Shown in pieces: positions 1,941 through 44,834 of a DNA stretch of 64,000 bases. Origin of the DNA: Candidatus Latescibacterota bacterium (GTDB lineage Bacteria; Latescibacterota; UBA2968; UBA8231). Under the pieces are notes generated by a model. It was not told the DNA's origin. It saw only the letters and a list, made by a program, of their open reading frames with translations, and made no database searches. Location of the stretch: the NCBI GenBank assembly GCA_965215195.1, contig CBDCDC010000002.1:1-64000 (forward strand), written 5' to 3'. Positions within the stretch are counted from its first letter, which is position 1; every line of letters begins with the position of its first letter. Position numbers and translations under genes: made by a program.

Positions 1941-4900
1941 GTGCCCACCGCGTTGGAACTGGCCCGTCGCGCCCTCGCCGCCGACGCGGCCAAAGCCCTG
2001 AATTCACTGGAGCAATTGGGTTTTGCCCATTCGGTCCAAGCCCTAGAGACCTTGGACCGAATGGGCGGCCCGCCGCAAGCCGCGCCCCTGCCGGCCCTCG
2101 CGTTGGCCGAGGTGGCCGCAACGGGCCGGCCGGACGAGGGACTGCGGCAGTTGGTGCGCTTGGCTATGGTGTACGGCAGTCCCCGGGGGCTTTTCTCTTA
2201 CTTGGAGGCCGATCCCATTCTGTGCCAGCGCCTAGTGCAGATCGTGAGTCACAGCACCTTTCTCGCCGACATCTTGGTGCGCAACCCCGAATTTCTGCTG
2301 TGGCTGTTGGCCGAGACCCCGCACTTAGTCGAGCCGCTGGAGCGGAGCGTCCTACGGCAAATTTTGTGCGCCGATCTCGGTCATGCCTCCGAGTCTGAAG
2401 AGCGTTTGGAGGTGCTGCGGCGGGCGCACCGGCGCGAGGTGCTGCGCATTGGCGCGGCCGAGCTCCTCGGCACCAAGCCGGTCGCGCAAATAGGGAGAGA
2501 GCTAGCCGACCTAGCCGACGTGGTGGTCGAGTTGACCCTCGAAATATGCCAGCGCGACTTGTGGCAGGAGCACGGCCGCCCGCTGGACGAGCGCGGCCGC
2601 CCGGCGCGCTTCCTCGTCGTGGGCTTGGGCAAGTACGGCGGGCAGGAATTAAACTACAGCTCGGACATCGACCTAATTTTCGCGTGGGACGGCGAGGGCG
2701 AGACCCAACCCGAGCAGGGGGGGACGCGGCTGGAGAACGGCGAGTTTTTCCGCCGCTTGAGCCAGCGCCTAGTCCAAGTGCTGACCGCGGCGACCAAGGA
2801 GGGATTTTTCTACCGAGTCGATATGCGGCTGCGCCCCGAGGGCACCAGCGGCACCTTGACCCACTCATTGCGTGCGAGCTGGGCTTACTACGAGACGCGC
2901 GGGGAACTGTGGGAGCGGCAGATGCTCATCAAGGCCCGGCGCGTGGCGGGATCGCAGACGCTGGGGGAGCAATACGCGGCCATGCTCCGGCCTTTTATCT
3001 ACCCGGCCCACTTCCACTCGCCACCGCACGAGGAAATCCGCCGCATCAAGGAGCGGATTGAGGCGAGCATCCGCGAGCGCCCCCGCGGCGAGAACAACAT
3101 CAAGCTGCAAGCGGGTGGGATCCGCGACATCGAATTCATCGTCCAGTGCCTACAGCTACTCTACGGGGGCATCCATCCCCAAGTGCGCATCCACAACACG
3201 CTGGCCGCCATTGACCGCTTGGCCGCGGTGGTCGCGCCCCAAGGCGCGGTGAAGGCGGCCTTGACTGCGGCAGAGGCTAGGGCCCTAAAGAGCGCGTACG
3301 AGTTTTTTCGCCGCGTTGAAAACCTGCTGCAAATCGCCTCGGGCCGGCCCGACTACGCCATCCCGGAAGATGCGCGGGCTGTGCGGGCCTTGGCCTTGAG
3401 CATGGGCTATGGAGATGCGCGGGCCTTTACCGGTGCGCTGGCCGGGCACCGGCTGCGGGTGCGCCGGCTGTTTGCCGCGCTGTTTTACAGCGACGCGACA
3501 GCCCCACGTGCGCCGACGTGGCTTTTGGAAGTCGAAAGCGGCAGCGAGGCCGCGCAAGCCGACTTGGCGGTGCGGGGCTTTGTCGATGGGGCGGCCGCGC
3601 ACCGCCGCTTGCAGCGGTTGGCGGGCATGGGCCTGTTGTTGAGCGGAGGCCGCGCCCACTTTGAGGCCCTGTTGCCGGAATTGCTGAATTCGCTGGCCGC
3701 AGCCCCGGACCCGGACCAAGGGCTGTTGCGCTTCACCCAGCTAGTTGAGGCCTATGGTGCGCCGGGCGCTTTGTATACCTTGTTACAAGAGTACGCCGGC
3801 TTCCGCACCTTGCTCATTGCCATCTGTGGCTCGAGCCGTTTTCTCGCCGATCTTTTGCGCCGCGACCCCGCCCTGCTCGACAGCCTAGTGGACCAAGCCG
3901 GCCGGGATTTGGCACTTGGCCCGGCGCGCGGCGATTTGAACGCCATCGCACGGATGCAAAACCAAGCCCTCCTGCGGATTGGGGCCGACGACCTGATGGG
4001 GTTGGCGACCGAGGAGGAGACCTTCCTGCGGTTGACCGAGTTGGGCGAAGAGGTGTTACAAGCGGTCTATCGGCTGGCTTGGCGTCCGTTGGTGCGGCGG
4101 TGGGGCAAGCCGCGCAACCGGCGGGGCCGCGACGTGCGGTTCGCCGTATTGGCCGCCGGCAAGTTTGGGGGCCGCGAGGTGGATTTCGGCTCGGATTTGG
4201 ATTTGTTTTTCGTGTACGAAAGCGACGGCAAGACGCGCCGCGGCGTACCCAATAGCGTGTTTTTTATCGAGTTTAGCCAGCGCCTGATCGCCCTGTTGGC
4301 CGAGCGGGGGCTGTATTCGGTGGATGCGCGGCTGCGGCCCGAAGGGGCCGGTGCCCCCATGGCCATCTCGCTGGTCGGCTACCGCCGCTACTTGGCGCAG
4401 CGGGCGGCCACTTGGGAGCGGATGGCGCTGAGTCGCGCCCGCCAAGTGGCCGGCGATGCCGCATTCGGCGCGCGGGTTTTGCGGGCCATTGAGCGCTTCG
4501 CATATAGCCGAGAAGCGGACGCGGCCTTGGCTGTGCAAATGCAGGAGATGCGCCAGCGGATGGAGCCGCAGGGCCAGCGCCGCACGCGCATCGACATCAA
4601 GCGCGGCCCGGGCGGCATCGTGGATATCGAATTTGTGGCGCAGGTACTGGTGCTCAAGTGGGGCTATCGAGATCGGCGCCTACGAGTGGGTAGCACGAGA
4701 CACGCGCTGCAGTTGCTCGTCGAGCAGGGCTGTTTAGACCCGGAGCGGGGCCACTTTCTCCTCGACGCGTACGAGTACCTGCGGGCCGTGGAAAAGGGCA
4801 TGCGGCTCGCCAGCGACAAGGCCAGCGACGCCCTGCCGACCGGCCGGGAGCTGGAGGTATTGAGCCGCGCCCTCGGCCGCGCAGACGTAGCGGCCTTCCA

Positions 4901-5997: not shown

Positions 5998-7272
5998 ATG
6001 GCGATGAGCAAGTTGGCCTTCTTGGGCGGTCCCAAGGCCGTCACCGCCGACGAAGGCGATATTTTCCGCTGGCCGATTATCACCGCCGAGGACGAAGCAG
6101 CCGTGCTGGATGTGCTGCGTCGCGGGGCGATGTCGGGCTGGGACCTAACCTTGGCCTTTGAAGAGGACCTGAAGGCTTACTTTGGCTTGCAGCACGCCCT
6201 CTGTCACAACACGGGCACGGCCGCGATCCACGCCGCGCTGTGGGCTTGCGGCGTTGGCGTCGGCGACGAGGTCATCGCGCAGAGCATGACCTTTTGGGGC
6301 ACGTCGCTGCAAGTGTTCTCGCTGGGGGGGACGGTGGTATTTTCCGAAATTGACCCCCAGACTCTGACGATGGATCCCAACGACATTGAGCATCGCATTA
6401 CCGAGCGCACCAAGGCCATTGTGCCCGTGCATTACTGCGCCTATCCAGCCGATATGGACCCGATCGTGGAGATTGCCGAGCGGCACGGGCTGAAGGTGAT
6501 TGAAGACGTCTCGCACGCCCAGGGTGGCCGCTACAAGGGGCGGCTGCTGGGCACCATCGGCCACATCGGGGCCATGTCGATTATGTCGGGCAAGTCGCTG
6601 GCTTGTGGTGAGGGGGGCTTTTTGGTCACCGACGACCAAGCCCTGTACGAGCGCGCTGCGGCCTTTGGGCACTATGAGCGCACCCGCTTCGTAGGAGATC
6701 CCGCGCTGAAGCCGTTTGCCGGGATGCCGCTGGGGGGATACAAATACCGGATGCATCAGCTATCTTCAGCCGTAGGCCGCACCCAACTGCGCCACTACGA
6801 CGAGCGGGTACAGGAGATCCAGCGGGCGATGAACTACTTCTGGGACCTGCTCGAAGGCGTCCCGGGGATTGAGGCGCATCGCCCCCCGGCTGACAGTGGC
6901 TCGACGATGGGTGGCTGGTACGCGGCCAAGGGGCTATACGCGCCCGAGGCGCTAGGTGGCCTGCCGGTGGAGCGCTTCTGCGCGGCGGTCACGGCCGAGA
7001 CCGGGGCGTACAAGATCGTGCCGGGTGCCAATGAGCTGATGCACCTGCACCCGGTGCTCAACGAGGCCGATGTGTACGGCCACGGCCAACCCACGCGCAT
7101 TGCCCACGCCAACCGCGACTTGCGGCAGGGGCCGGGCAGTCTGCCGGTGACCGAGCGCATGACCGGCCGCATCTATTCGATTCCGTGGTTTAAGCACTAC
7201 GACGCCCCAATCATCGAGCAATACGCCACGGCCTTCCGCAAGGTGGCTGAGTGTGCCGACGAGTTACTGTGA
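5998..7272 (+). CDS. DegT/DnrJ/EryC1/StrS family PLP aminotransferase
   Basis: TKAIVPVH, VIEDVSHA, SGKSLACGEGG. Confidence 0.9.
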   Translation: MAMSKLAFLGGPKAVTADEGDIFRWPIITAEDEAAVLDVLRRGAMSGWDLTLAFEEDLKAYFGLQHALCHNTGTAAIHAALWACGVGVGDEVIAQSMTFWGTSLQVFSLGGTVVFSEIDPQTLTMDPNDIEHRITERTKAIVPVHYCAYPADMDPIVEIAERHGLKVIEDVSHAQGGRYKGRLLGTIGHIGAMSIMSGKSLACGEGGFLVTDDQALYERAAAFGHYERTRFVGDPALKPFAGMPLGGYKYRMHQLSSAVGRTQLRHYDERVQEIQRAMNYFWDLLEGVPGIEAHRPPADSGSTMGGWYAAKGLYAPEALGGLPVERFCAAVTAETGAYKIVPGANELMHLHPVLNEADVYGHGQPTRIAHANRDLRQGPGSLPVTERMTGRIYSIPWFKHYDAPIIEQYATAFRKVAECADELL

Positions 7273-7280
7273 TTTATGGG

Positions 7281-8078
7281 ATGGACGAGATGGGTGATCC
7301 GTTGAGCGCGCGGCTGTTTGGGTACGGGGTGCCTTATCGGGTGGAGGTGGATGCAGCGGGGGCGGTTGCGCCGCGGCCTACGGATGCGGTGGGCGAAGCT
7401 GAGCGCCTTTGCCGCGCCTTGCGCCAGTTGTGCGGGGAGGGCGAGGATGCGACTGAGGGCGACTGGGTGTATTCGCTGCCCTTTGGGCGCTGCGGGATAC
7501 AAGGGCGGCCGCGCGAGCATATCATCGCCTATTTCTGCGCTGAGGCGTATATAGATGTGCTCTCTAAAGGTGGGGTGAAAACGCAGCCGCTCGCCGCCGG
7601 GGAGATCGTCGATATTGAGCCGGCCACCGTCGTCCGGTTGCGCGCTCGTCCCTTGGAGCACCATTGCGTACTCGTGGCCTTCCAGACCGAGGATCGCACG
7701 CCGCTGTTGGGCCACGCCGCGCCCTTCACCCTCGATGGCGAGGTGCCCGACGACTGGTGCGAGCGCTTGGTGAAGTGCCATGCCGCTTTTGACGCGGCAG
7801 CTGCACGGGCGTCTGAGGGCGGGCATCGGCCGCTGCTGGAACGCTTCTTGGGAACTATGGCGGAAAAACTGGCCGGCGACCCTGAAATCACCGCCGCACA
7901 AGAGCAGGCGTGGTGCGCGGGTTCGTACGCGGTTGAAGATGAACAAGCCCTTTTCGAGCGCCAGCGAGCCTTGCTCAACGAAGCAGTCCTCGCCCGCATC
8001 GGAAACCAAGACGAGGCTGTCTTTCGCTTTCCGGGCATGTTCGGCGGGGTCGCGCCGCTTTTTGCCCTAGTGGACTGA
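7281..8078 (+). CDS. Hypothetical protein
   Basis: Long ORF directly after aminotransferase, host-like codon usage; no family recognised. Confidence 0.6.
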   Translation: MDEMGDPLSARLFGYGVPYRVEVDAAGAVAPRPTDAVGEAERLCRALRQLCGEGEDATEGDWVYSLPFGRCGIQGRPREHIIAYFCAEAYIDVLSKGGVKTQPLAAGEIVDIEPATVVRLRARPLEHHCVLVAFQTEDRTPLLGHAAPFTLDGEVPDDWCERLVKCHAAFDAAAARASEGGHRPLLERFLGTMAEKLAGDPEITAAQEQAWCAGSYAVEDEQALFERQRALLNEAVLARIGNQDEAVFRFPGMFGGVAPLFALVD

Positions 8079-8218
8079 GGACGGGTGCTACCGCCGCTTT
8101 TCGCTCGCGCTCGGGGCACACTAGAAGCCATCTCACACATGCTACTGATCCCATAGAAACCAGCCCCCACGCTGGTCCAAATCGCCCCTACATAAATGAC
8201 GCATTTAGGGTTTATGAG

Positions 8219-9133
8219 ATGACTTCTACTCAAACCAAACTCAGATACGACAAGCAAGGGCCTAATTATGAACAACCGCAAGAAAATCCCCTGCCTTTGC
8301 TGGTCATGGAGAGTTCTGAATACTCACCGAACCAATGCGTATTCTGCAATAATGAATTCGGCATCTGGCTATATCGGGCTAATTGTCTTGAGTTTTTGGA
8401 TATGCTCATCGGCAAATACCCGGAGGGCAAATTCGATATGATATTTGCAGACCCTCCATATTTCCTTTCAAATGGAGGGATTACCTGCCACGCTGGAAAA
8501 ATGGTGAAGGTCGATAAGGGAAAGTGGGACAAGTCCAACGGTCCAGAAATAAATCACGAGTTCAATACCGCTTGGCTATCGAGGTGTCAAAAAGCATTGA
8601 AATCCGACGGAACGCTCTGGGTCTCTGGGACCCAACATGTGATTCACTCCGTGGGGTATGCGATGCAACAGATGGGCATGAAGATTCTCAACGATATTAC
8701 ATGGGAAAAGCCCAATCCTCCTCCGAACTTGTCTTGTCGCTATTTTACTCATGCAACGGAAACTATCATCTGGGCCGCTAAAAATGAAAAATCAAAACAC
8801 TGTTTTAACTATGCCAAAATGCGAGAATTGAATCACGGCAAACAGATGAAATCAGTATGGTCGTTTAAGCCTCCTAATAAAGAAGAAAAGAAATTTGGCA
8901 AACATCCTACGCAAAAGCCTCTTGCGCTTATAGAGAGGATAGTTATGGCATCAACAAGCGCGGGAGACTTGATCCTCGATCCTTTTTCCGGTAGTTCAAC
9001 CACCGGTGTAGCCGCTGTGAACCTCGGACGAAGATTCGTAGGAACCGAACTCGAACCTGAGTTTATCAATCTATCCATAGAACGCTTGAGGGACTCGATA
9101 AATAACCGGCAATCGTCCCTGAATTTTGCGTAA
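8219..9133 (+). CDS. Beta-class amino-DNA methyltransferase, DpnA-like (predicted GATC)
   Basis: FADPPYFLSNGG...VDKGKWD, HPTQKP, DPFSGS in beta order; AT-richer than flanks; start uncertain. Confidence 0.88.
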   Translation: MTSTQTKLRYDKQGPNYEQPQENPLPLLVMESSEYSPNQCVFCNNEFGIWLYRANCLEFLDMLIGKYPEGKFDMIFADPPYFLSNGGITCHAGKMVKVDKGKWDKSNGPEINHEFNTAWLSRCQKALKSDGTLWVSGTQHVIHSVGYAMQQMGMKILNDITWEKPNPPPNLSCRYFTHATETIIWAAKNEKSKHCFNYAKMRELNHGKQMKSVWSFKPPNKEEKKFGKHPTQKPLALIERIVMASTSAGDLILDPFSGSSTTGVAAVNLGRRFVGTELEPEFINLSIERLRDSINNRQSSLNFA

Positions 9134-9144
9134 GGGGCTATTCA

Positions 9145-9753
9145 ATGGAACGAGAAACTGCGATCAGCAAGCTGAAATTGCTGAAGGGAAAAGATTTAGT
9201 TACACTTGCCGCTCAATATGAAGTGACTATTTGGAAAGGAGGCAAGAAGAACAAAGGATGGGCAGGCCATCTGCTTGAAAGGTACTTGGGGCTTCCCATC
9301 AATTCGGCGCAGTCACCTAACTTTGGATCGTGGGAGCTGAAAATCGTTCCATTGAAAAGACTTGCTAGTGGCAGGATCGCGGTTAAGGAAACTATGGCTA
9401 TTACGATGATCGACCCTGTCAACGTCAAAATTACCCTCTTTGAACAAAGCCATTTGCTCACAAAATTGAAAAAAGCAGTGATTTGCGCCAGATTATTTGA
9501 GTCTCAAGACGAGAACCGATCTATTCTGATGAACGTATCGGCTTTTGATCTCAATAACAAAGCGGATTACGAGCAAGTAAAGAAAGATTACGAAGAGGTG
9601 AGAAGCTGCATTGCAACCAAGGGGTTTGAACATCTAACCGGCAAAATGGGGGTACTAGTTCAGCCGAGAACCAAGGGCTCCGGGTACGGTAGCACGAGCC
9701 GGGCTTTCTATGCACGAACCCAATTCGTCGCAAAGATGCTTGGAATCGGTTAG
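9145..9753 (+). CDS. MutH/Sau3AI-fold endonuclease-like protein
   Basis: NKGWAGHLLE..LG, PNFGSWELK, QPRTKG, RAFY motifs matching MutH layout. Confidence 0.75.
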   Translation: MERETAISKLKLLKGKDLVTLAAQYEVTIWKGGKKNKGWAGHLLERYLGLPINSAQSPNFGSWELKIVPLKRLASGRIAVKETMAITMIDPVNVKITLFEQSHLLTKLKKAVICARLFESQDENRSILMNVSAFDLNNKADYEQVKKDYEEVRSCIATKGFEHLTGKMGVLVQPRTKGSGYGSTSRAFYARTQFVAKMLGIG

Positions 9754-9780
9754 GGCTGATAAATTCGCAGGAGAAACGCA

Positions 9781-10746
9781 ATGGCAAAAAGGAAAATTCG
9801 CGTCGGCCTGATCGGCTGTGGCGGCAACATGCGCGGTGCCCACATCCCTCGGCTAAAAGCCGACGGCCGCGTAGAGGTAGTGGCGGTCGCCGACCCGGAG
9901 GAGGCATCGGCGCGGCAATTGCTAGAAGTGTGGGGCACTGAGGCCGCATATTACGCCGACTACCGGCAGATGATTGGCGCAAACGCGCTCGATGGGGTGC
10001 TGATCTCTTCGCCGCATTCGACCCACTACGCGCAGGCGCACTACGCGCTGGAGCGAGATCTGCACGTTTTGGTCGAGAAACCCCTGACGACAAAGACGCG
10101 CCACGCCCAAGCCCTAATCGATCTGGCCGCCGAGCGCGAGCGCGTGTTGGTCGTCAGCTATCAGCGCAATTTTTACCCGGCGTATGCGTATGCGCGGGAG
10201 CTGGTGCAGGAGGGGGCTCTCGGAAAGCTCAAGGGAATTGTCGCCTACGTGACGCAAAATTGGGGCGGCAAGGGATGGCGGATGGTGCCCGAGCTGGCCG
10301 GAGGTGGGATGTTCATGGACACCGGTAGTCACTTGGTGGCTGCGGTGCTGTGGATTACCGGCTTGACGCCCGTAAAGGTCGCGGCCTTCATGGACAAGCG
10401 GGGCAAGCGGGTGGATATGGATGCCGTGGTCAATGCGCGGTTTCGCGGCGGTGTGCTGGGGTCGCTGAGCTTTATCGGCAGCGCGAGCCGGCACGACGAG
10501 CGGCTGACCATCCACGGCGACGAGGGAACGTTGGTCTTTCACCTGCACCAGTGGCGGGTGCGGGAGGTGTTGCTGAATGGGGAGCCATTGGAGGTGCCCA
10601 AGCGGGTGCGGGAGGACACGCCGGACGCGGCCTTTTTGCGCTGGATTCGCAACGGCGGCAAGGGCTATGAGCGGCCGGATTTTGCCGTGGCAGTAGCCAA
10701 ATTCACCGAGGCTGCGTATCGGTCGCTAGAGCAGAAGCGGCGATGA
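9781..10746 (+). CDS. Gfo/Idh/MocA family oxidoreductase
   Basis: VGLIGCG, HVLVEKP, GGGMFMDTGSH. Confidence 0.92.
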   Translation: MAKRKIRVGLIGCGGNMRGAHIPRLKADGRVEVVAVADPEEASARQLLEVWGTEAAYYADYRQMIGANALDGVLISSPHSTHYAQAHYALERDLHVLVEKPLTTKTRHAQALIDLAAERERVLVVSYQRNFYPAYAYARELVQEGALGKLKGIVAYVTQNWGGKGWRMVPELAGGGMFMDTGSHLVAAVLWITGLTPVKVAAFMDKRGKRVDMDAVVNARFRGGVLGSLSFIGSASRHDERLTIHGDEGTLVFHLHQWRVREVLLNGEPLEVPKRVREDTPDAAFLRWIRNGGKGYERPDFAVAVAKFTEAAYRSLEQKRR

Positions 10747-12419
10747 TTGCGTACGCACCGCTCGTCGGCGAGCTCGATCAGCAGGTCGCGGGTGTGCTGA
10801 CGCGCCAAGTGCTGGACGCGGAAAGCCCCTATTGCGGTGGCTTTGTCGATCGAGACCGGCTGGCCGGTTCCAGCGGCATCAGCGCGGTCGCGCCGCTTGG
10901 CTACGCCTATCTCCTGCCCGAGTCGCGCCACTACCGCAGCGCGGTCCTCTTGCGGCGGATCCGCCTCGCCGCCGAGTTTGCCCGCCGACACCGGAATCCA
11001 TCGGGTTGTTTCGACCTGTTGAGCACTAACTTCGACTCGGCCCCGGACACAGGCTTTGTGGTGCAGGCCATCGCACCGGTCGTCTGGGCGGCGCGGCAAC
11101 AGGCTACAAACGACGAAGGGGCCGCCGAGATCGCGGCCGCCTTGGGCGAGCTCATACAGAAGGCGGCCCCGGGCATGGTCGCTGGCGGCTTCCACACGCC
11201 CAACCACCGCTGGGTGCTGGTCGCCGCACTGGCCCAAGCCCAAGCCCTCTATCCAGAGTTGGAGGTGAGCGCGACTGTAGATGCGTACCTCGGCGAAAGC
11301 ATTGACGTCAACGCCGACGGCGAGTACAGCGAGCGGAGCACGGGCGTGTACAATGCCGTGGTCAACCGCGCCTTAATCCGCGCCGCGCACGTGCTCGCCC
11401 GGCCCGACCTGCTCGCGCCTGTGCGGCGCAACTTGGATTTGTCCTACCATCTCCTCCACGCCGACGCCACCGCGGTGACGAGCATTTCCAAGCGGCAGGA
11501 CCGCGACACGCGGGCCGTGCCGACCGGTTTGGCCGATGGCTATCACGCCTTGGCCCATTTAGACGACAATGGCTTGTACGCGGCCGTGGCCGACCTGTTG
11601 GTCGCGTGTGGCCGCAGCGGTTTGGTCTGCCTGCCGAACTACGTCCTGCATCCCGAGTGGCGAACGGCTCGTCTCAAGCGGACGCCCTTGCCCGAGCAGT
11701 ATAGTCGCGTCTATCCGGCGTCCGGCCTGTGGCGGGTGCGCCGAGGCGCGGTGAGCGCTACGGCCGCGGCCGGCTTGACCGCGCCTTTTAGCGTGGTCTG
11801 CGGGCAGGCCGAATTGGCGGTGAAGATATCATCGACCTATTTCGCCACCGGGCAGTTTGTGGGCGAAGCGTTTGCCGCGGCCGGCAATGGGGTGCGGATG
11901 GAGCACAAGGGCCGCAACCGCATCTATCCAGAAAGGGATTACGTGGGGGGGATTTACTGGCTGCCGGTTGCCGAGCAAGTCAATGCCCAAAACTGGCAAG
12001 AGGTGCGGGGTCGGCGGGCGACGTATGAGTTGCCGCCGCTAAAAGTTGAGTTGCACGTCGAGGAGGTGGCCGGTGGTTTCGACCTCCACATCCGCACCTC
12101 GGGGGGGGTTGATGGGGTGCCCTTGCAGATTGAGGGAGTCTTCGCCCCGGGCGGAACCTTGGAGATGGATAGCGCACTCGTCGAGGGCCGCGCCGGGCAC
12201 ACAGTCTTTCTCAAAGCAGGCTACGCGCTCTACCGGGTGGGCGACGACGCCATCCGCATTGGCCCGGGGTCCATGGAGCACGCCATGTGGCGGATGCGCA
12301 ATAGCGAGATCGACGAGGAGCGTTTGCGGGTGCTCATCGCCCTGCGGACGCCGGTAGCGCGGACCTTGGAAATCCGCTGTGGGCAGTGGTCGGACGCGCA
12401 GGGTGGGTTTTTACGTTGA
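10743..12419 (+). CDS. Conserved hypothetical protein (alpha-helical N-domain, beta-rich C-domain; possibly carbohydrate-active)
   Basis: 558-aa ORF with ATGA overlap to upstream gene; HTPNHRW and DGEYSERS motifs. Confidence 0.7.
   Translation: MIAYAPLVGELDQQVAGVLTRQVLDAESPYCGGFVDRDRLAGSSGISAVAPLGYAYLLPESRHYRSAVLLRRIRLAAEFARRHRNPSGCFDLLSTNFDSAPDTGFVVQAIAPVVWAARQQATNDEGAAEIAAALGELIQKAAPGMVAGGFHTPNHRWVLVAALAQAQALYPELEVSATVDAYLGESIDVNADGEYSERSTGVYNAVVNRALIRAAHVLARPDLLAPVRRNLDLSYHLLHADATAVTSISKRQDRDTRAVPTGLADGYHALAHLDDNGLYAAVADLLVACGRSGLVCLPNYVLHPEWRTARLKRTPLPEQYSRVYPASGLWRVRRGAVSATAAAGLTAPFSVVCGQAELAVKISSTYFATGQFVGEAFAAAGNGVRMEHKGRNRIYPERDYVGGIYWLPVAEQVNAQNWQEVRGRRATYELPPLKVELHVEEVAGGFDLHIRTSGGVDGVPLQIEGVFAPGGTLEMDSALVEGRAGHTVFLKAGYALYRVGDDAIRIGPGSMEHAMWRMRNSEIDEERLRVLIALRTPVARTLEIRCGQWSDAQGGFLR
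12320..12413 (+). repeat. 94-bp direct repeat, copy 1 (3' end of the 10743-12419 gene)
   Basis: 90/94 identical to 15561-15654. Confidence 0.95.
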
Positions 12420-12461
12420 GGTACTCAACTACGCCTAGGAAATTACGCGAAGTGCAGCAGG

Positions 12462-13589
12462 ATGTCTAAAGAAATGAATCCCATATTTGGATTTCCACCA
12501 ATCCACAAGGCCCATCTTACGTCTCCAGATAATATCGCTGCTCGTTTGCAAAGCCTAATCGGTACGCCATTTAAATTGACGGGAAAGACTAGGACAGATG
12601 GCTCGAATGTGAGAAAGCTTGTTGCACAGGCTTTCACAGAATTCTTATTACCTAAACCATGCCCCCAGTCATCTCATTCTATTATTCCACCTAAAGGAAA
12701 AGGATTGCCAAGGATACTTTTAGAATATGTGGATACCTATATCGTAACTACAGGTAATACGTACAATCTCCAAGTTTGGAATCGAAATCCAGCATCCGAC
12801 TCTATCCAAGTCGAGTACAATTCCGGCGAGACTCTATCGTCAAAGGATGTCCGATTCGTCTTCCTACGTGTTGACCCACAGAATCAGACGATAAGCTCAA
12901 TCCTCGTCCTAACTCCAGATTATATCGAGAGTAAATTCGGACGCTTTGGCAAGCCGACGATTAAACACCAAATCATAATTTCGCCAAGAATTAGAGATAA
13001 GGCTTTAGCTCAAAATCCGCCGGGCATTTTCTGTTCGGATACATCTGCTATTTCTCGACACGTAACGGAGAAATATGCTATTCCGACCTCTTCGATGAGT
13101 GACAAACCTGTTTTGGGCCAGCTATTTTCTTTGAAATTGCTGCGAGAAATGCTAGTAGAAGGGCTAATTGGTGAACCATTGGATCAAATGGCTACAAAAA
13201 ACAGGGGGCAAGCGTTAGAGCGCTTGGTTGCTCTTCTTTTAGGGTACAAAATTAGGGACGCAGAGCTTTTAGAGGGAAATTTTCCCGATATTCCCAATCA
13301 AGCCTTGGAGGTCAAAGTGCAGGATTCACCAACCGTAGATCTAGGAAAATTTAGTCCTCAGTTTAAAGAGTGTATCCCGTCCTGCCCTAGCGTAACGACG
13401 TTAGATGTCCGCTACTTGATAGCCTTGACTGATGCAAGGACGAGCATCAGTCAGGGGATAATTTTATGTCCCGGCGAGAAGTTAGGTGAGCATTTCTCAT
13501 ACGTAAGCGACACTAACTTCAAGTGCCAAAGATCAATCCCTATGTCCTTTTTTGACATGTACCAAGGCCAAGCCCTTTACAATCCCTGA
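12462..13589 (+). CDS. Putative type II restriction endonuclease
   Basis: AT-rich ORF convergent with a methylase; NRGQALE...FPDIPNQALEVK PD-(D/E)xK motif. Confidence 0.75.
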   Translation: MSKEMNPIFGFPPIHKAHLTSPDNIAARLQSLIGTPFKLTGKTRTDGSNVRKLVAQAFTEFLLPKPCPQSSHSIIPPKGKGLPRILLEYVDTYIVTTGNTYNLQVWNRNPASDSIQVEYNSGETLSSKDVRFVFLRVDPQNQTISSILVLTPDYIESKFGRFGKPTIKHQIIISPRIRDKALAQNPPGIFCSDTSAISRHVTEKYAIPTSSMSDKPVLGQLFSLKLLREMLVEGLIGEPLDQMATKNRGQALERLVALLLGYKIRDAELLEGNFPDIPNQALEVKVQDSPTVDLGKFSPQFKECIPSCPSVTTLDVRYLIALTDARTSISQGIILCPGEKLGEHFSYVSDTNFKCQRSIPMSFFDMYQGQALYNP

Positions 13590-15334
13590 AACGAAAGTAG
13601 CGGCTCGACACCAAAGGCTTCCGCTACAGCAACCTCTAAGTCAGTTTCATATTTTTCGATCATGTTGTCGCCTACATCAGCCGACACTAATTTTTTAACC
13701 AAATCTACTATCCTCCTAGAATGTGCAGAATGCCTATCTGGCATTGGATATTTTTCTACGTATTGAGTTAAATAGCGCCGGCGGCCAGCGTACAGTTTGT
13801 TATTAAATACCAATTCGTGATAACGAGTCATCAGATTTGAATTGGCTATCCCTTGGATTAGGAAGAGCATATCCGTGTTCTCTTCTTCTGATACAATCCA
13901 GTAACAGTTGCCATCAACCATCAATCCTTCACTGTCGTAAAAGAACATCGGGCTAGGGCTGATATCGGGAAAGATGAGCTTGGGACGCCCCAAAGCTAAA
14001 GGGTCTTGAGGAACCCAAATCTCATACCATTTTCTATTGGCCTTAATTATGTATTTCCGTTTTTCTAATCTCTCTCGATATTGCCTAAGATATGCTGCCG
14101 CACATGGGTACTGTTCTATGTCAATTGCTTCTCGTTTCGCGTTCCTGATTTCATGAGTATATAGTATCTTTTTTAGCGATTCATTTCTTGTGCTAGAGCG
14201 CCAGCGGCTAGCATCGTCGTGTGAGAATATGAGACGTAGTAAACAGTCTTCCGGTCTCCTACCTTCAGGCATATCGTTCCAGTCTGAGCGAATAAAAACT
14301 TGATCGGCCGTTGTCTTAATGCCAACCCTTACCTTTACAACGTCTCCAATTCGATACTTTGCCGCCGATTCTATTTTATCAATCCACTTTTTCTCGGTCG
14401 CAGTTACCATCTGCCAAGGTTCAGAGGACAACTTAGAAAAGGAAAAAGTCCCCAGCGAAAATTTGAACCGGGTTTTAGACACCAAATATTCACCGTCAGA
14501 ATTTTGTCTGAGAATGTCGTACACTGAATTAACATGGACTAGCTTTTCCCGATCATCGCGATTACTTATCCTATTCTCGTAAATTCTGATGAATCTATTT
14601 GACGGCCTCTGGTTCGTAGAGGAACGCGATGTAGAGGGTAATTTTCTAGCGATTAAGATAGCTGGCAGAACGGCAGCCTTGAAAAGCTTTGTGTCGCCGA
14701 GGTCAATCAATTCGATTACCTTGTAATTTTCTGCAATGAACGCTCTGGTGGAGGCTCCACTTTTTGTAGAAATAAAACGATTGGACGTGATGACACCTAT
14801 AATGCCCCTGTCTTTTAAGCACTGGGTCATAGCTACTAGAAATGCTTGATATAAATCGATTCTGCCTTTTAGGCGAAAGGATTTTGCTAACTCCTGTGAT
14901 TTCCGGGCCCCGAGGACCTGTGTTCGGACGTAAGGAGGGTTGGCGATTATAATATCTACAGGAGGAATAGTCCTGTTCGTTGGAGGTCTGTTGTTAAATA
15001 ACCCTATCTGTGCTTCTGAGTCGGTGTACAGTTCAAGGAAATCCATCCTCTTAAAAAAATTCGCTTTTGAGCCAAACGCTTCTAATCGCTCTTGAGCATT
15101 CCCGAGGGATAAATCCTCAAGCTCTATCCCTGTAATGACGGTATTTCTTAGTGTATTATCTGGCAGTGAGTTAGCTAAGGCGACCAGTAGTTCTCCATCG
15201 CCACAGGCTGGATCCAAAACTCTTGGTTCAGGGAGTTGACGGAAATCCGTTTCGGCGACCAGTCTCTCTGCGAGGAAACGAGCAAGTTCAGGAGGCGTGT
15301 AATGCGAACCAGTAGCTTTTTGCTTAGGCGGCAT
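13577..15334 (-). CDS. Gamma-class N6-adenine DNA methyltransferase, BseCI/BanIII/ClaI-like (predicted ATCGAT)
   Basis: QKATGSHYTP, VLDPACGDGELL, IIANPPYVRTQ, GRIDLYQAFLVAM resemble M.BseCI as recalled; specificity is inference. Confidence 0.88.
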   Translation of the reverse strand: MPPKQKATGSHYTPPELARFLAERLVAETDFRQLPEPRVLDPACGDGELLVALANSLPDNTLRNTVITGIELEDLSLGNAQERLEAFGSKANFFKRMDFLELYTDSEAQIGLFNNRPPTNRTIPPVDIIIANPPYVRTQVLGARKSQELAKSFRLKGRIDLYQAFLVAMTQCLKDRGIIGVITSNRFISTKSGASTRAFIAENYKVIELIDLGDTKLFKAAVLPAILIARKLPSTSRSSTNQRPSNRFIRIYENRISNRDDREKLVHVNSVYDILRQNSDGEYLVSKTRFKFSLGTFSFSKLSSEPWQMVTATEKKWIDKIESAAKYRIGDVVKVRVGIKTTADQVFIRSDWNDMPEGRRPEDCLLRLIFSHDDASRWRSSTRNESLKKILYTHEIRNAKREAIDIEQYPCAAAYLRQYRERLEKRKYIIKANRKWYEIWVPQDPLALGRPKLIFPDISPSPMFFYDSEGLMVDGNCYWIVSEEENTDMLFLIQGIANSNLMTRYHELVFNNKLYAGRRRYLTQYVEKYPMPDRHSAHSRRIVDLVKKLVSADVGDNMIEKYETDLEVAVAEAFGVEPLLSFQGL

Positions 15335-15560
15335 CTGAGTATAGCCCTTTGTCTTCAGTATTAAGGCTATAAGAATCAAATATCAATAAACCGATGTCAA
15401 CGGTTGTACCTACCGGACAAAGCCGCATGAGTTCCGGTGAGGAATAGATATGATCGGCGATACCGACGGCCATCGCCGGACTGCTCTGTTGCCATCGACC
15501 TTTTTGCGTCCGCTCAGAAGGAGGGTCTTGAACAGGGGCGTACGAGTACCTTTTGCCGGG

Positions 15561-15654
15561 GCGTCTGCGGGTGCTCATCGCGCTGCGGACGCCGGTGGCG
15601 CGGACCTTGGAAATCCGCTGTGGGCAGTGGTCGGATGCGCAGGGTGGGTTTTTA
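15561..15654 (+). repeat. 94-bp direct repeat, copy 2 (displaced gene 3' end)
   Basis: Encodes the same peptide RLRVLIALRTPVARTLEIRCGQWSDAQGGFL as copy 1. Confidence 0.95.
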
Positions 15655-16299
15655 TACCCGTCCCCCGGCCCACCGCACTCCTTGCGCCAGCATCTGCTGC
15701 ATACCTAGACGTGCAAATGTGCCCGGGCCATGTCCCAACGCCGTGTAAAACACCCGCCCTGCGCCGTACGGCTTGACCCACGCGAGGGGATGCTGCTGGC
15801 CGCTCCACTCGGCGGTGGCCAAAATGCGGATGGCCGGGTCCCACGCCGACATGTAAATCTCGTCTTCCACGTCAAAGTCGGGCACGTCTTGCGTAACCGG
15901 GTGATCGCCATCGACAATGTTGACAGTAAAGGTCGATCCCGGGGGATGCCAATTGGCGTGCCCGCCGAGCAGCTCTACGGCTTTGCCGCCAATCCGCCAC
16001 CCCGTGCCGTGGAGGCCGACCAGCCCTTTGCCACCGGCGACAAAATTGAATAGCCCCTCTTCCTGCGCGGGCGTCAGCTCGGGCACGTGCTGCACGGTGC
16101 CGTCTTCCCGCCGCTCAACTCGCGTGAAGCCAGTGCCGTGGACCAGCACAGCGAAGTCGCGCAGACCATCCGACGCCAACACGTCCTTGTCGTCTGTCAG
16201 CGCAACGGACAAATCGTCGTACGCGCTCAAAAACTCGTGGATGACGGAGGCACTGGCCGCAAACTGATGATTCGGGCCGGATAAAATTAGGACGTTCAT
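15652..16299 (-). CDS. ThuA-like domain protein
   Basis: GGKGLVGLH, HPP, DEIY, PLAWVKPYGAGRVFYTALGH. Confidence 0.88.
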   Translation of the reverse strand: MNVLILSGPNHQFAASASVIHEFLSAYDDLSVALTDDKDVLASDGLRDFAVLVHGTGFTRVERREDGTVQHVPELTPAQEEGLFNFVAGGKGLVGLHGTGWRIGGKAVELLGGHANWHPPGSTFTVNIVDGDHPVTQDVPDFDVEDEIYMSAWDPAIRILATAEWSGQQHPLAWVKPYGAGRVFYTALGHGPGTFARLGMQQMLAQGVRWAGGRV

Positions 16300-16419
16300 A
16301 AGAGACTCCTTTGAAACCTGCTTGACGTGGTTGCACTTCTCCCAAGCGGCGGGATGGCTCAATCCGGGTAAAACGTTTTCTCGCCGACCGCTTCATCGTG
16401 CCCGAAAGGATGAGTGGGA

Positions 16420-34006: not shown

Positions 34007-34693
34007 TTAAAATTTTGGGTAAAGCCGTTTCAGTTTAATGCGCGCATCATCGGTGGTAAACCGCCAGTCCACGGCTTTCTGGTTTTCGTTGCGTGCCTGT
34101 TCCCAAGCGTGGGTTTCCGCCTTCAAGGTCTCTTCATCGGGTATGCGCGCATTTAGACATTGCTGGGACAAAATGCGCAACTCAATTTCAGCGATATTGA
34201 GCCAACTGCCATGTTTGGGGGTGTAATGCAACTCAAGTCGTCTAACTAACCGGCGCGCTTGGGCCGGTTCAAACGCTTCATACAAAGCGGCAATCGTGTG
34301 CGTGTTGAGATTATCACACACCACCAAGACCACTTCAGCATCTGGATAATCCACCTCCAATAGCTCTTTGATTTCAAAAGCCCAGTCCACAGCGGTCTTG
34401 CGTGAGCGCACATTGACCTTGCGCCAACCGGCCAAGGGGTCTGTAAACAGAAAATTGACCGCTGTGCCATTGTGCGCGTATTCGTAATCATACCGTTGGG
34501 GGTGTCCAGGCCGTGCGGGCAGCGGGATACGGGTTTCTCCAATCAACTGGATGGGCTGCTCATCCATGCACACCCAAGGCCTTTTCGGATCGTAGGGCCG
34601 ATGATACAGATCCAGAACATCTTCCATGCAGGCTACAAAGGCTGCATTTTGTTCAGGTGGAATCACCCAACAGGTACGCAGATGCGGCTTCAA
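34007..34693 (-). CDS. IS630 transposase, DDE part
   Basis: CMDE, DNLNTH, TPKHGSWLNIAEIE. Confidence 0.92.
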   Translation of the reverse strand: MKPHLRTCWVIPPEQNAAFVACMEDVLDLYHRPYDPKRPWVCMDEQPIQLIGETRIPLPARPGHPQRYDYEYAHNGTAVNFLFTDPLAGWRKVNVRSRKTAVDWAFEIKELLEVDYPDAEVVLVVCDNLNTHTIAALYEAFEPAQARRLVRRLELHYTPKHGSWLNIAEIELRILSQQCLNARIPDEETLKAETHAWEQARNENQKAVDWRFTTDDARIKLKRLYPKF

Positions 34694-35130
34694 TTCGTTT
34701 TTTTTAGCGTCCGTCCCACCGTGCGATACGAAATGGAGTCCACCACGTTGAGTTCGACCAACGTGTCGGCCAGTAACTCCAATGTCCAGCGGTTGCGTCC
34801 TTCGGGGGGATGGCTACAAGCCAGCGCGATCAAACGGGCTTCACCGGCTCCATCCAGAATCTTCTCGCGGGGCGGCTGTACGCGCTTTTTACGTTCTAAG
34901 GCCGCCTGCATCCCGTGCTCTACAAAACGTTTCCGAACGTTTTCGACGGTGACTCTATGGCAGGCGAATGCTTCCGCAATAGCCCTATCTGTCCAGCAGG
35001 GCCCTGCTGCATCGGCTTTCAAAAGTATATTCGCGTGTTTGATCTTGTAGGCTGGGGCGTGACCTGTGCTGACCAGAGCTTCTAACTGCTGACGCGCTTC
35101 GTCGGGGAGACGCACGATATATTTCTTCAT
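34690..35130 (-). CDS. IS630 transposase, HTH part; joined to DDE part by frameshift
   Basis: MKKYIVRL, PPEGRNRWTLELLA; A8 slippery run at 34698-34705. Confidence 0.9.
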   Translation of the reverse strand: MKKYIVRLPDEARQQLEALVSTGHAPAYKIKHANILLKADAAGPCWTDRAIAEAFACHRVTVENVRKRFVEHGMQAALERKKRVQPPREKILDGAGEARLIALACSHPPEGRNRWTLELLADTLVELNVVDSISYRTVGRTLKKTN

Positions 35131-42002: not shown

Positions 42003-42466
42003 GCGCCAAGCGCCTTAGTCAATTGATCGCCGCATTTGATCACCGCTATACCCTTTCGTTGTCCACGCAATTGTAGCTTCTTAGCGCGAAGTGTTTTGAG
42101 ATCGTTTCGATGGATTTTTTTGCCATGAGCAAGGACTGGAGCAAATTGTAAGGTAACACCTTGGGGGAGCCACCTATTTGCCATTTGGGTGCCTCCTGCA
42201 AGCTGCTCCAATACCGCACTGACACTGAGTCTGCCGCTCTTCAGCTCAATGGGAGCAACCCAAGTCTCGTTGTGATCTTCGCCGACGAACAGATAGTCGC
42301 ACCGTTTCCAATTATTCGGAATTGACAGCACGTCGCAGTCCATATCGACAATGACCCGTACTGGCGGAGCCTCGGCCAAATCAACCCGGCATTTGTCTTT
42401 GTCGCAGTGAGTGGTACGGCAGCTATTGGGTATTATGCGGGCAATCTCCGCGACTGTACCACTCAT
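41999..42466 (-). CDS. Small PD-(D/E)xK-like nuclease-fold protein
   Basis: RCDYLF...IELKSG; ATGA overlaps with both neighbours. Confidence 0.65.
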
Positions 42467-43986
42467 TCGGTATTGTTGCCCTGTAGGCGATTGAAAATAT
42501 CCACGCTGTCGTTGTACAGTGCCAAACTGACATCATCGTAGTCGGTGGGATAGAGGCCGGTTTCCTCATCCAGCTTTATTTCCTTCACTACCGATCCCTT
42601 CGGGCGGCACTTCGGCTTGAACAGCCATGCACCCACTTGGTTGGAACGTAGCGCGAAATCACCTTGGGGGATCTTCTTTCGGCGAGCCTCGGGCAATTCG
42701 GAGCACCGCACGATGTTGCCGAGTTCCTCTAGCACCCACTCACTGTGCGTCGTGACGATTACTCTGACACCGGCGTGAATGAGTGCGGCGATTTGGCGGG
42801 TGAATTCGACCTGCATGGCCGGATGGAGGTGTGCTTCCGGCTCTTCGATGATCAGGGTCTCGCCGGGTTGAACGACATGGCGCAGATACAAGACCACTGG
42901 CGCGAGTTCCGACACCATGGACGAGGCGTTCATCAGGGGCAGGGAATTTTTCCATCCGGCGGGTTTATAGAAAAACTGCGGGTAGCCCATTGCCGATGTT
43001 TTGATTTGAACCAAGCCTGTGAGGAGCTCTTGCTCAAGGTGCTTGGCTAGAGCGTCCGCTCCGTTGCGCCGACGTTCCGAGAGATCGCCCAACTCGATGA
43101 GCTGCTCCAGAAAATCGATGACAACGCCGGAAAGATCTCTGCGAAGCCGAGGTTGAGAGGCGCGGTTGAGCAAGGAACTGACGAGTACGCGATGAGCGTG
43201 CATCACGCCCGTGCGGTCGGCGGGGAGATAATGAGCGGGGCGAATCATCGGGCCGAGGATGAAGGAAAGGACGGAGTTGGCAAGGTGCTCCGACACTACT
43301 CCCACGCCCTCTCCTCTGTTGTCTATATCATCGCGCCAGCGAAGGAGTCTCGAAGAGTAACCATACCTTCTCGGCGGTTTTTCGACCCGCAAAGGTGCTT
43401 CTTCGGGTATCGCAGTGATGAGCTGAGGTCCCGTCCGCGTCAGCGAAAGTGCGTATTTGAACGGTGCCGTATTGCCATCTTCTCCCAATCCGCTGCTTTG
43501 CAGGACCACCTCGGCATTATTGCTGCCCGGATGGCGAATCAAATCCTTTGTGCCATCTACACCGAAACACCTCGTGATTTCCTCAGCGAGTACTTCCTTA
43601 AAAAGACCATCGACGTTCCGGAGCAGCGGAAGCACCAAGTCTGTGACCGGAGCCGACAGAGCCACATTGTGCTCGTGGTTTTCTACTTCCCATGCTCGTA
43701 ACGCTTGTAGGATGCGCTCAAATTCGTTGTCGGGCAGGCGGTTAAATTCGTTGTCGGGCAGATCGAAATCATCAAGTGAGCCGTTTGTAATCGGCTGCAT
43801 TATAGGGTAAGGACCTGCCCTGAAAAACCGATGCAGCGCATAGATCAGGATCGCTAGATAGGATTTCCCCGTGTTGCTCGGCCCGACGAATACGGTCAGC
43901 GGACGCAGATCGATCTTGGCCTTGACGATCGGCCCGAAATTGGCCACTTCGAGTTCAAGTGCGTCTTGTGTGGTTAAGTCGTCCAT
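42463..43986 (-). CDS. AAA_21/AbiEii-type ABC-like ATPase
   Basis: NFGPI, GPSNTGKS Walker A, ASSMVSE signature, IIEEPEAHLHP, TTHS. Confidence 0.88.
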   Translation of the reverse strand: MDDLTTQDALELEVANFGPIVKAKIDLRPLTVFVGPSNTGKSYLAILIYALHRFFRAGPYPIMQPITNGSLDDFDLPDNEFNRLPDNEFERILQALRAWEVENHEHNVALSAPVTDLVLPLLRNVDGLFKEVLAEEITRCFGVDGTKDLIRHPGSNNAEVVLQSSGLGEDGNTAPFKYALSLTRTGPQLITAIPEEAPLRVEKPPRRYGYSSRLLRWRDDIDNRGEGVGVVSEHLANSVLSFILGPMIRPAHYLPADRTGVMHAHRVLVSSLLNRASQPRLRRDLSGVVIDFLEQLIELGDLSERRRNGADALAKHLEQELLTGLVQIKTSAMGYPQFFYKPAGWKNSLPLMNASSMVSELAPVVLYLRHVVQPGETLIIEEPEAHLHPAMQVEFTRQIAALIHAGVRVIVTTHSEWVLEELGNIVRCSELPEARRKKIPQGDFALRSNQVGAWLFKPKCRPKGSVVKEIKLDEETGLYPTDYDDVSLALYNDSVDIFNRLQGNNTE

Positions 43987-44039
43987 ATCTTCACTCTCCG
44001 TTCCCGCACTAGCTCGGCTCGCCTGCACCCAGCTGCGCC

Positions 44040-44834
44040 TCAAACCCTTCCGGGAAAAGACCGTCCCCGCACCTGCTTAAAGGGCGGCATCTTGGGCGCG
44101 TCAGTGACCGCTGCGTCGCGCCAAGAAGTCGCACGCATGTAGTGTACGGCATAGCCCCTGCGCCGTGTGCCGGTGCGATTGGCATTGCTCTGATGCAGCG
44201 TCAGGCTGTGGTGGAAGCTGATGCTGCCGGGGCCGAGGGGAGCGGGCCGGATGGGCCACCCGCCGCTTGCCAGATCCGCGACAAAAGGGGCCAAGCGCTC
44301 GCCCCGCAACATGCCCCAGCGGTGGGTGCCCGGGGCAAAGTTGAGGCAGCCGTTGTCGAGGGTGGCCGCGTCAATGGCGGTCCAGGCGGTGACCAAGTCC
44401 ATGGGGAAAATATCGCGCCAAGAGGCCGAATCTTGATGCCAGCCCTGCGCCGTGCCGGTGCGCGGAGCTTTCATAAAGAGCTGGTCGCCGTACATTTTGA
44501 TGTCGTCGGTGCCGAGCAAATCGGCGGCGATGGCGGCGATTTTGGGGTGGGTGACGTGGGCCCACATCACGTCGTCGTACACCGCTACGTTGTACAATTT
44601 GCGCACGGCCAGCACTTGGTCGGTGACGGCTTTTTCGCCGCGGCGGAAGACGGGTTCGAGCTGGATGCTAGTATCGGGAATGTGATCTAGCGCACCGGTG
44701 GCGATGCGGTCGGTGTGGGCCGCTAAAACGGCGACCTCGTCCGGGGTCAGCACATCTTCGACAGTCAGGCAACCGTCGAGGTGGAAGCGCTCGACTTGGG
44801 CGGGGGTGAGGTGGCGCAGGTTTTGCCGGGTCAC
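44040..44834 (-). CDS. PhyH family dioxygenase
   Basis: WHQD, W.AID.AT.DNGCL, LHQS. Confidence 0.9.
   Translation of the reverse strand: MTRQNLRHLTPAQVERFHLDGCLTVEDVLTPDEVAVLAAHTDRIATGALDHIPDTSIQLEPVFRRGEKAVTDQVLAVRKLYNVAVYDDVMWAHVTHPKIAAIAADLLGTDDIKMYGDQLFMKAPRTGTAQGWHQDSASWRDIFPMDLVTAWTAIDAATLDNGCLNFAPGTHRWGMLRGERLAPFVADLASGGWPIRPAPLGPGSISFHHSLTLHQSNANRTGTRRRGYAVHYMRATSWRDAAVTDAPKMPPFKQVRGRSFPGRV

Follow-up and report, generated by a model that had tools for sequence, protein, structure and literature searches.

A low-GC restriction-modification cassette between 97-nt direct repeats at a recurrent, integrase-free entry point in a Latescibacterota operon

Among the elements known from the ends of genes are the streptococcal CIME elements, which sit at the 3' end of fda, and islands by which the 3' end of the target gene is replaced. 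Restriction-modification (RM) genes can be inserted with a long target duplication, and such insertions have been described in several phyla (Furuta, Abe and Kobayashi 2010, PMC2853133). In the portions of that paper used here, they are recognised by the presence of a restriction (R) and a modification (M) homologue inside the insert, an insert of less than 20 kb, a repeat of more than 30 bp, and the lack of any other mobile element. The repeats measure 46 to >400 bp with high but imperfect identity, some overlap the 3' end of a gene, their lengths are called "long and variable", and the mechanism of the duplication is stated as unknown. The same portions describe a second class of RM genes, flanked by inverted repeats. 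The core defence hotspots (cDHS) of Pseudomonas aeruginosa (PMC10250203) hold variable defence cargo that is flanked by conserved core genes, and no mobile element is obvious in them; they span 1-224 kb (median 26 kb), and the authors suggest that they are transferred via the conserved flanks by homologous recombination. Here, we analyse a cassette with a candidate type II RM pair, flanked by a 97-nucleotide (nt) direct repeat, that lies between the convergent genes g558 and thuA in 64,000 nt of Candidatus Latescibacterota bacterium (assembly GCA_965215195.1, contig CBDCDC010000002.1, positions 1 to 64,000 of the forward strand), hereafter the window.

The locus has the features of the insertions of Furuta and colleagues. 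Both R and M homologues lie inside the inserted sequence, which comprises 3,144 nt, or 3,241 nt if one copy of the repeat is counted; the repeat is 97 nt long; the site is empty in 13 of 16 close relatives; and tRNAs are not a target, since ARAGORN finds none in the window. It is a new case of this type of insertion, in a phylum that is not listed in the consulted portions of PMC2853133, where the precedent named by an earlier sequence-only reading of the window is indeed described. The site itself is a recurrent, integrase-free entry point, in which unrelated cargos follow the same nucleotide.

The repeat pair, the empty site and the cargo

The two copies of the repeat (Table 1) are identical at 92 of 97 positions (95%) and are spaced by 3241 nt from start to start. 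They are far beyond chance: the next-longest family of direct repeats returned by the repeat search between 10000 and 18000 has only 29 nt at 72% identity. The sequence-only reading had described a duplication of 94 bp with four differences, all silent, and within these limits there are exactly four (12324 T/C, 12341 C/G, 12356 A/G and 12395 C/T), all silent in the frame of g558, the two copies giving the same translation, RLRVLIALRTPVARTLEIRCGQWSDAQGGFL. The true repeat reaches 3 nt further left, though, and includes a fifth difference (12319 A/G) that changes codon 526 from GAG (E) in copy 1 to GGG (G) in copy 2, such that the claim of purely synonymous divergence does not extend to the whole repeat. 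The differences stand at offsets 2, 7, 24, 39, and 78 of the repeat and leave a longest identical block of 38 nt. The final three nucleotides of each copy are TTA, and those of copy 2 (15652-15654) are the complement of the stop codon TAA of thuA, where the copy had correctly been said to end.

The native form of the site can be seen in other genomes. One scan of species-representative genomes produced 80 loci (numbered L001 onwards), the close ones being metagenome-assembled genomes (MAGs) labelled Latescibacterota or Gemmatimonadota. The close set consists of the 16 loci with 87-91% protein identity that contain the 3' end of g558. With about 88-92% DNA identity, they belong to other species, whereas the genomes compared by Furuta and colleagues were strains of a single one. 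In the 13 relatives with an empty site (L001, L002, L004-L010, L013-L016), g558 ends in GGG TTT TTA, followed directly by TAG, TAA or TGA, and overlaps thuA tail to tail by 6 nt, the stop of thuA being the complement of the TTA. Because of this tail-to-tail overlap, any insertion that spares both genes must duplicate at least the TTA. In the window, copy 2 restores the stop of thuA, and the reading frame of g558 is lengthened by one codon and closed by a new stop, both provided by the cassette (CGT TGA). Both genes are intact, in agreement with the proposed insertion without disruption of the target, and the native arrangement is that of copy 2 with thuA on the right and of the gene body with copy 1 on the left. 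The comparison with sister genomes for an empty site, which had been put forward as a check, thus finds the repeat in single copy in 13 of 16. The idea that copy 2 is the remnant of a tandem paralogue is refuted, as g558 and thuA abut directly in the same 13 relatives. The remaining three loci comprise one without thuA (L003) and two with other DNA at the site (L012 and L022).

The GC content falls to 0.40-0.48 across 12450-15300, from 0.63-0.68 in the flanks, and the insert holds two real genes that converge and overlap by 13 nt, as had been noted for this AT-rich interval. Matches in PADLOC and the PDB, together with catalytic motifs, support the assignment of the cargo to a BseCI-like type II RM pair, composed of a candidate endonuclease (R2) and a predicted N6-adenine methylase (M2). 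M2 is a close homologue of M.BseCI (PDB 7qw5; E 2e-168 over residues 18-594, nearly the full length), with a methylase motif IV (NPPY) and a target-recognition domain; it has the Pfam domains Eco57I, N6_Mtase, and TaqI_C and matches MTase_II in PADLOC (E 5e-201). R2 matches REase_II in PADLOC (E 2.5e-16), and residues D276, E283, and K285 of its PD-x6-E-x-K motif are invariant in an alignment of 41 homologues. Searches with R2 returned no sequence match in Pfam, NCBIfam, or the PDB. Its AlphaFold model (pLDDT 88.2) has no fold match in the PDB at E <= 0.001, the best having E 0.25; the top matches, all non-significant, are Sau3AI, SfiI, and EcoRV. Relatives of R2 at 82-89% identity are found on other contigs, one of them of 1,776,113 bp, and an orthologue of g558 with the native end is recorded on a contig likewise of 1,776,113 bp. 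These relatives are in favour of a circulation of the cassette within the clade.

The non-coding parts of the insert have few recognisable features. The left leader has a hairpin with a 6-bp stem (GTTGAG-GTA-CTCAAC), which folds no better than shuffled sequences, and the folding energies at the junctions and between R2 and M2 are within those of shuffles (z -0.75 to +0.79), with no sign of a structured RNA or of a terminator. One promoter-like site for M2 lies in the right spacer (15386-15357, minus strand); the scan found four sites in total for 5.2 expected, which is not above shuffles. The right ~147 nt of this spacer match nothing in the 80 loci or in the rest of the window, and blastn and tblastx searches with the flanking pieces of the cassette (12414-12470 and 15380-15557) against the same loci and the window returned only self or chance-level matches.

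BseCI recognises ATCGAT, and the host part of the window has fewer copies of this hexamer than expected (nine observed for 21.7 expected), a moderate depletion. Other 6-nt palindromes are strongly avoided in this host part (59 kb): AAGCTT (0 for 8.3 expected), GTGCAC (0 for 11.1), GTCGAC (2 for 26.8), and CAGCTG (4 for 21.1). This avoidance fits a long history of restriction pressure.

The host genes form a sugar or uronate-type operon. It includes a family-less gene (7251-8078), a GFO/IDH/MocA oxidoreductase (hereafter GFO), g558, the convergent thuA, an enolase-superfamily gene, and an SDR gene. No Pfam or NCBIfam family was assigned to g558; language-model features would make it heparinase II/III-like or ulvan-lyase-like, which is a lead only.

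Unrelated cargos at one nucleotide

Two close relatives carry unrelated cargo after the same nucleotide, which settles in the affirmative the question, raised in the sequence-only reading, of whether other cargo occupies the site. In L022, a 2.9-kb PD-Lambda-5 pair (D12-class methylase and a 474-aa partner) starts directly after the same TTTTTA; behind it, 26 nt of the end of g558 are present a second time, with a single, silent difference (GGT/GGA). In L012, 1.1 kb with an open reading frame (ORF) of 317 aa of no known family also start directly after TTTTTA; the right end has a strong hairpin, then ...CCGGTTTTTA, and the 8-nt "repeat" doubles as the T-tract of the cargo terminator. The repeats of 97, 26, and 8 nt in the window, L022 and L012 have only the 8-nt GGTTTTTA in common. 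Searches with the leaders and tails of L022 and L012 (blastn and tblastx) gave only self or chance-level matches. Protein ends extend the series: among 56 close orthologous proteins, 50 end in FL and six have tails starting right after L557, namely R (protein P0001), SIC twice, EAI twice, and GSGVF (L012-like), and the tail of L022, read from the junction sequence, is FIG. There are hence five junction types at one codon boundary, and those with SIC and EAI, known from protein tails alone, suggest two more types of cargo at the site.

Junctions placed further right in the 3' end of thuA, or a few codons to the left, would be equally tolerable, so that the coincidence argues for a preference in the mechanism. 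Few stretches of the operon are as rich in AT as the 10 nt of the junction, whose AT count is reached by four of 5278 windows of this size in L004 and by 12 of 7387 in L010. One way to explain the shared entry nucleotide would be microhomology with incoming DNA that is AT-rich.

The site varies in other ways in the remaining relatives. L003 (11674-11690) has a deletion of thuA whose left boundary is 6-7 nt past the same TTA/TTG codon, and the end of the enolase-superfamily gene follows g558 almost at once. In the more distant L017-L020 and L024, a minus-strand gene of 469-497 aa replaces thuA before the enolase-superfamily gene, which leaves ~1.4-1.5 kb after g558, and in L021 and L023 only 193 and 68 nt separate g558 from the enolase-superfamily gene. 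The content of the junction between these two genes has varied over a long time.

No recombinase or transposase domain was found in R2, M2, an 84-aa ORF (15324-15578), and the two genes of a second cassette of the window (M1 and R1, Table 1), nor in the cargo ORFs of the relatives (three in L022, one in L012, two in L009, six in L003), which bears out the description of the cassette as integrase-less. Rfam assigns no RNA family between 7000 and 18000, and the 16 close loci have no large element at the site. The only mobility gene among the selected ORFs of the window (searched with Pfam in sets of 10 and 47) encodes an IS630-like transposase, ~18 kb from copy 2; with the settings used, this element has no terminal inverted repeats, and it has no motif in common with the cassette.

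These searches bear on two explanations by dedicated recombination. The repeats could be attachment sites (attL and attR) used by a site-specific recombinase whose gene lies elsewhere. The cassette would then be an integrase-less cis-mobilisable remnant, similar to the CIME elements or to the islands that replace a gene end. The block of identity ends at the end of the gene and is then followed by element DNA on one side, mimicking 3'-end integration; three cargos have the same boundary and the common 8-nt GGTTTTTA; and cassettes accrete in tandem in the neighbouring slot (L008, L003). Yet neither a recombinase in any cargo or scanned ORF of the window nor a large element in the 16 loci was found, repeat lengths of 8, 26, and 97 nt are unlike those of one att site, and there is no tRNA-like target, which together make this explanation very unlikely. 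We give even less credit to a non-autonomous transposon-like unit with short terminal inverted repeats and a transposase acting in trans, for which the IS630-like gene could be the source; such a unit would correspond to the second class of Furuta and colleagues. Each end of the insert has, at a distance of 5-6 nt, one arm of an imperfect inverted repeat, AGGTACTC..TACGCC (12419-12435 and 15535-15551, the latter on the minus strand), whose score is reached by only 45 of 2000 random pairs if position is disregarded; L012 has TAGTGGG 2-3 nt from both ends. Such terminal repeats are weak, were found in two of three cargos, and were chosen after seeing the data. L022 has no such inverted repeat, the IS630-like element has neither one nor a related motif, a DDE transposase would not be expected to leave target duplications of 97, 26, and 8 nt, and the motif overlaps a near-palindrome that inflates its score. 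A 14-nt identical stretch of the motif is also present inside the GlnE gene (4764-4780, minus strand), with doubtful significance.

An assembly artefact joining two strains, which the sequence-only reading had named as its possible undoing, might be suspected in a MAG whose two repeat copies differ only by allele-like changes. We find this scarcely credible. The cassette could not be placed anywhere without its two junctions, the additional R at the end of g558 recurs in an independent contig of 57 kb (P0001), the same architecture is present with other cargo in an independent assembly (L022), and the R2 protein of the window is recorded on a contig of 4,862,218 bp.

Table 1. Positions of the cassettes, repeat copies and associated genes in the window.
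Feature	Coordinates	Strand	Description
Second integrase-less low-GC RM cassette	8079..9780	+	Slot between the 7251-8078 gene and the GFO/IDH/MocA gene, same operon; GC 0.42-0.47
M1	8219-9133	.	N6_N4 methylase, CcrM-like
R1	9145-9753	.	MutH/Sau3AI-like endonuclease
g558 host gene	10743..12419	+	558 aa, intact; one residue (R) longer than 557-aa orthologues
Repeat copy 1	12317..12413	+	Last 32 sense codons of g558, ending at TTA (L557); cargo starts at next base
Insert left leader	12414..12461	+	Provides CGT TGA (extra R and new stop) to g558
R2, candidate type II restriction endonuclease	12462..13589	+	375 aa; database form starts 4 codons later; PD...E-x-K signature
M2, predicted N6-adenine DNA methyltransferase	13577..15334	-	585 aa from ATG at 15334; NPPY motif in translation
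Insert right spacer	15335..15557	.	223 nt: AT-rich part, then ~147 nt of ~60% GC
Repeat copy 2	15558..15654	+	Non-coding displaced 3' end of g558; joined to thuA exactly as in empty sites
thuA host gene	15652..16362	-	Pfam ThuA; intact, convergent with g558
TAC triplet	15655..15657	+	Stop of g558 (TAG, TAA or TGA) in 13/13 empty-site relatives; displaced stop lost
IS630-like transposase	34007-35130	-	Two ORFs, HTH_32 and DDE_3

Probable allelic differences and the proposed route of the cassette

We favour, with moderate confidence, a reading in which the site is a recurrent integrase-free one, the RM cassette is spread and kept in the clade by the homologous recombination of the host, and the differences between the repeat copies are allelic variants. 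The cassette would spread within the Latescibacterota clade by recombination through the flanking genes and the repeat, and the five differences would be variants brought in by the same process. Three sets of observations bear on the nature of these differences. First, random substitutions in the codons of the repeat are silent in about 0.28-0.32 of cases. Finding 4/4 silent has P 0.006-0.011 if all changes took place in a dead copy, and ~0.045 under a mixed model in which both copies change and copy 1 is under selection. Second, at all five differing positions the nucleotides also segregate among the 16 orthologues (for example, at 12319 G is found in 10 and A in six); this is the case for 0.18 of random substitutions, and 0.18^5 = 2e-4. 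Third, the pattern recurs in other repeats. L015 has the same M1/R1 cassette as the window in a different slot, between GFO and g558, and directly after the stop of R1 it has a 37-nt piece of the 3' end of the upstream gene. This piece is identical to the L016 allele and has two differences from the own copy of L015, both GGG/GGA and silent; the pair is found at 7402-7438 and 9946-9982. It gives direct evidence, by sequence comparison, that a cassette can move with a repeat copy on its right, and the piece appears to have come from another lineage. Over the three independent pairs (window, L022, and L015), seven of eight differences are silent (P = 0.001 if all fell in a dead copy, 0.02 under the mixed model), and the eighth is the natural E/G polymorphism. 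The differences look like alleles shaped under coding constraint and joined by recombination, not like the products of decay. The earlier view that both copies evolved as coding sequence stands as regards allelic differences, which recur in the pairs of L022 and L015, but one of the five differences in the window is not silent.

The same data weigh on a duplication made in place at insertion and followed by point mutation, in which the silent pattern would result from chance and from purifying selection on copy 1. This would be the simplest reading of the class of Furuta and colleagues, with identities from 44/46 to 417/423 among the repeats given in the consulted portions of PMC2853133, and the change of the displaced stop to TAC beside copy 2 shows that some mutation followed the insertion. 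The TAC change also alters the last residues of thuA, which are RV here and SL or similar in the relatives. We regard the duplication in place as unlikely. Copy 2 departs from the majority of the orthologues at three positions, all silent and each a segregating allele (P ~0.02-0.03 for 3/3 silent, and the above 0.001-0.02 for 7/8 over three pairs), and its 97 non-coding nucleotides have accumulated neither indels nor nonsense changes.

When the alleles came together is a separate matter. Protein P0001 is identical to the g558 protein of the window at 548 of 558 residues (98%), has the same additional R at its end, and has G526 like copy 2; at least the E/G difference thus probably arose in copy 1 of the window after insertion. 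Most likely, copy 1 would have been converted after the insertion by an empty-site allele, up to the boundary of the cargo; less likely, the difference between copies would date from the arrival, and neutral decay of copy 2 is not favoured. The proposal that the cassette arrived with an allelic 3' end is therefore retained in part: the differences do look allelic, but G526 of P0001 suggests that one of them is younger than the insertion.

A fuller version of that proposal is that the cassette came as a circle or fragment already carrying a donor copy of the last ~97 nt, the alleles differing from arrival onwards, and entered either by one crossover between homologous sequences, of the Campbell type, or by two joins of which one was homologous and the other illegitimate. 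It is conceivable, and we hold it to be the less probable account, yet it has some points in its favour. The differences are allelic and silent; the L015 cassette physically carries, on the same side, a foreign-allele piece of the 3' end of its former target; and the portions of PMC2853133 used here propose a cycle in which such units invade, are amplified by way of the repeats, and are released. Affinities to relatives also differ along the locus. The nearest genome is L010 (91.8% DNA identity on the left, 90.4% on the right), to which the gene body, thuA, and copy 2 (three mismatches) are closest, whereas copy 1 has the fewest mismatches with L014 (two) and L004 (three). These gaps of one to three mismatches per copy are too small for significance, and the comparison of the copies with orthologues, which had been suggested as a check, was made and has too small a margin to assign either one. 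The probable later origin of the E/G difference also stands against a donor copy, as does the fact that this account presupposes an earlier insertion at the site in the donor and leaves the origin unexplained.

For the origin of the repeats themselves, we would guess at a break or template switch that recurs at the AT-rich junction of the two gene tails and re-enters at a variable distance upstream; the survivors would be only those outcomes that keep both genes. Recombination between the copies, through which the cassette had been said to be able to excise, is possible in principle, but the longest identical block has 38 nt and the native gene end would not be restored: with the displaced stop now TAC, the product would give g558 an extension of 20 aa.

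Several points weigh against the reading that we favour. Homologous recombination explains the spread, not the origin, nor why unrelated cargos start at the same base. AT-rich microhomology fails as a general rule, as the junction of the neighbouring hot spot has just 6/10 AT. The silent-only pattern of the window, taken alone, is modest evidence. With the nearest genome only ~91% identical in DNA, neither copy can be polarised to donor or recipient. The sharing of the insertion by P0001 is read from a one-residue tail alone. Finally, the predicted endonuclease R2 gave no significant match in the fold search.

The neighbouring slot and comparison with known systems

The M1/R1 cassette of the window occupies another slot of the operon, with no long repeat around it at 8079-9780. 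The slot has 13 nt and is empty in 10 relatives (L001, L002, L004, L006, L007, L011, L012, L015, L016, and L029). It holds PDC-M07, a two-gene candidate defence system with an AAA_21 ATPase and a 173-aa partner, in L005, L009 (7204-8987), L013, L014, and, as a variant form, L010; the system was tested directly in L009 and L003, and its presence elsewhere is deduced from ORF sizes and junction sequences. The PDC-M07 cargo is flanked on the right by a second copy, of ~17-25 nt, of the end of the upstream gene. L008 (7141-9026) and L003 (4497-8862) have the RM cassette and PDC-M07 in tandem, and the slot of L003 adds further RM fragments, i.e., a DpnII/MboI-fold nuclease and a fragment of methylase, so that it looks like an accretion of cassettes. 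In L010, two tandem copies of the 25-nt unit GGTGCAATTAACCTAGTGGACTGAG, which includes the stop region of the upstream gene, lie at the right end of the cargo, ~60 nt upstream of the GFO start at 9039, and may be the scar of repeated insertion. Elsewhere in the window, an AAA_15/AAA_21 ATPase in a stretch of lower GC (0.54-0.55; 42463-44043, minus strand) and an AAA_14/DUF4143 ATPase (50830-51993, plus strand) may be further defence-type genes.

A wider idea is that the small defence cassettes of this clade travel as cargo plus a copy of the 3' end of the last gene behind which they stood, and that they enter by host recombination at a single preferred break point, the stop-codon overlap of two convergent genes. 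We consider this generalisation doubtful. To our knowledge, the "long target duplication" has remained unexplained since 2000. If the idea were true, 1) such a duplication would be brought in by the element and not made at the target; and 2) the ends of operon genes would be integrase-free landing pads for a series of defence systems. The locus is a natural series that narrows the options, with at least three unrelated cargos at one entry nucleotide and repeats of 8, 26, and 97 nt, and it shows that integrase-free defence hotspots can exist at single gene junctions within a metabolic operon, here in an uncultured phylum. Should the series be confirmed in more genomes, the route by which cassettes enter becomes testable.

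The comparison with known systems brings out what is particular to this locus. Like the insertions presented in the consulted portions of PMC2853133, the cassette has a deviant GC content and a repeat that lies over the 3' end of a gene, as in their cases in Haemophilus influenzae. Unlike them, it is found in Latescibacterota MAGs, cargos unrelated to one another enter at one nucleotide and have repeats of 8, 26, and 97 nt, the differences between copies are allelic and, except for E/G, silent, and the 6-nt overlap of the genes makes some duplication obligatory. The cDHS of PMC10250203 are a looser analogue, since we observe here single cassettes of 1-3 kb inside an operon, with base-precise junctions and flanking duplications. 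At the level of the cargo, M2 resembles the BseCI (ClaI-type) system in its predicted gamma-class N6-adenine methylase, its NPPY motif, and its TaqI-like specificity domain, and R2 has no named relative. Finally, the locus is reminiscent of the integrase-less cis-mobilisable elements in having a block of identity up to the end of the gene, an intact target, no recombinase of its own, and tandem accretion nearby; it differs from them in that our data contain no recombinase and that the length of the repeat varies twelve-fold between cargos.

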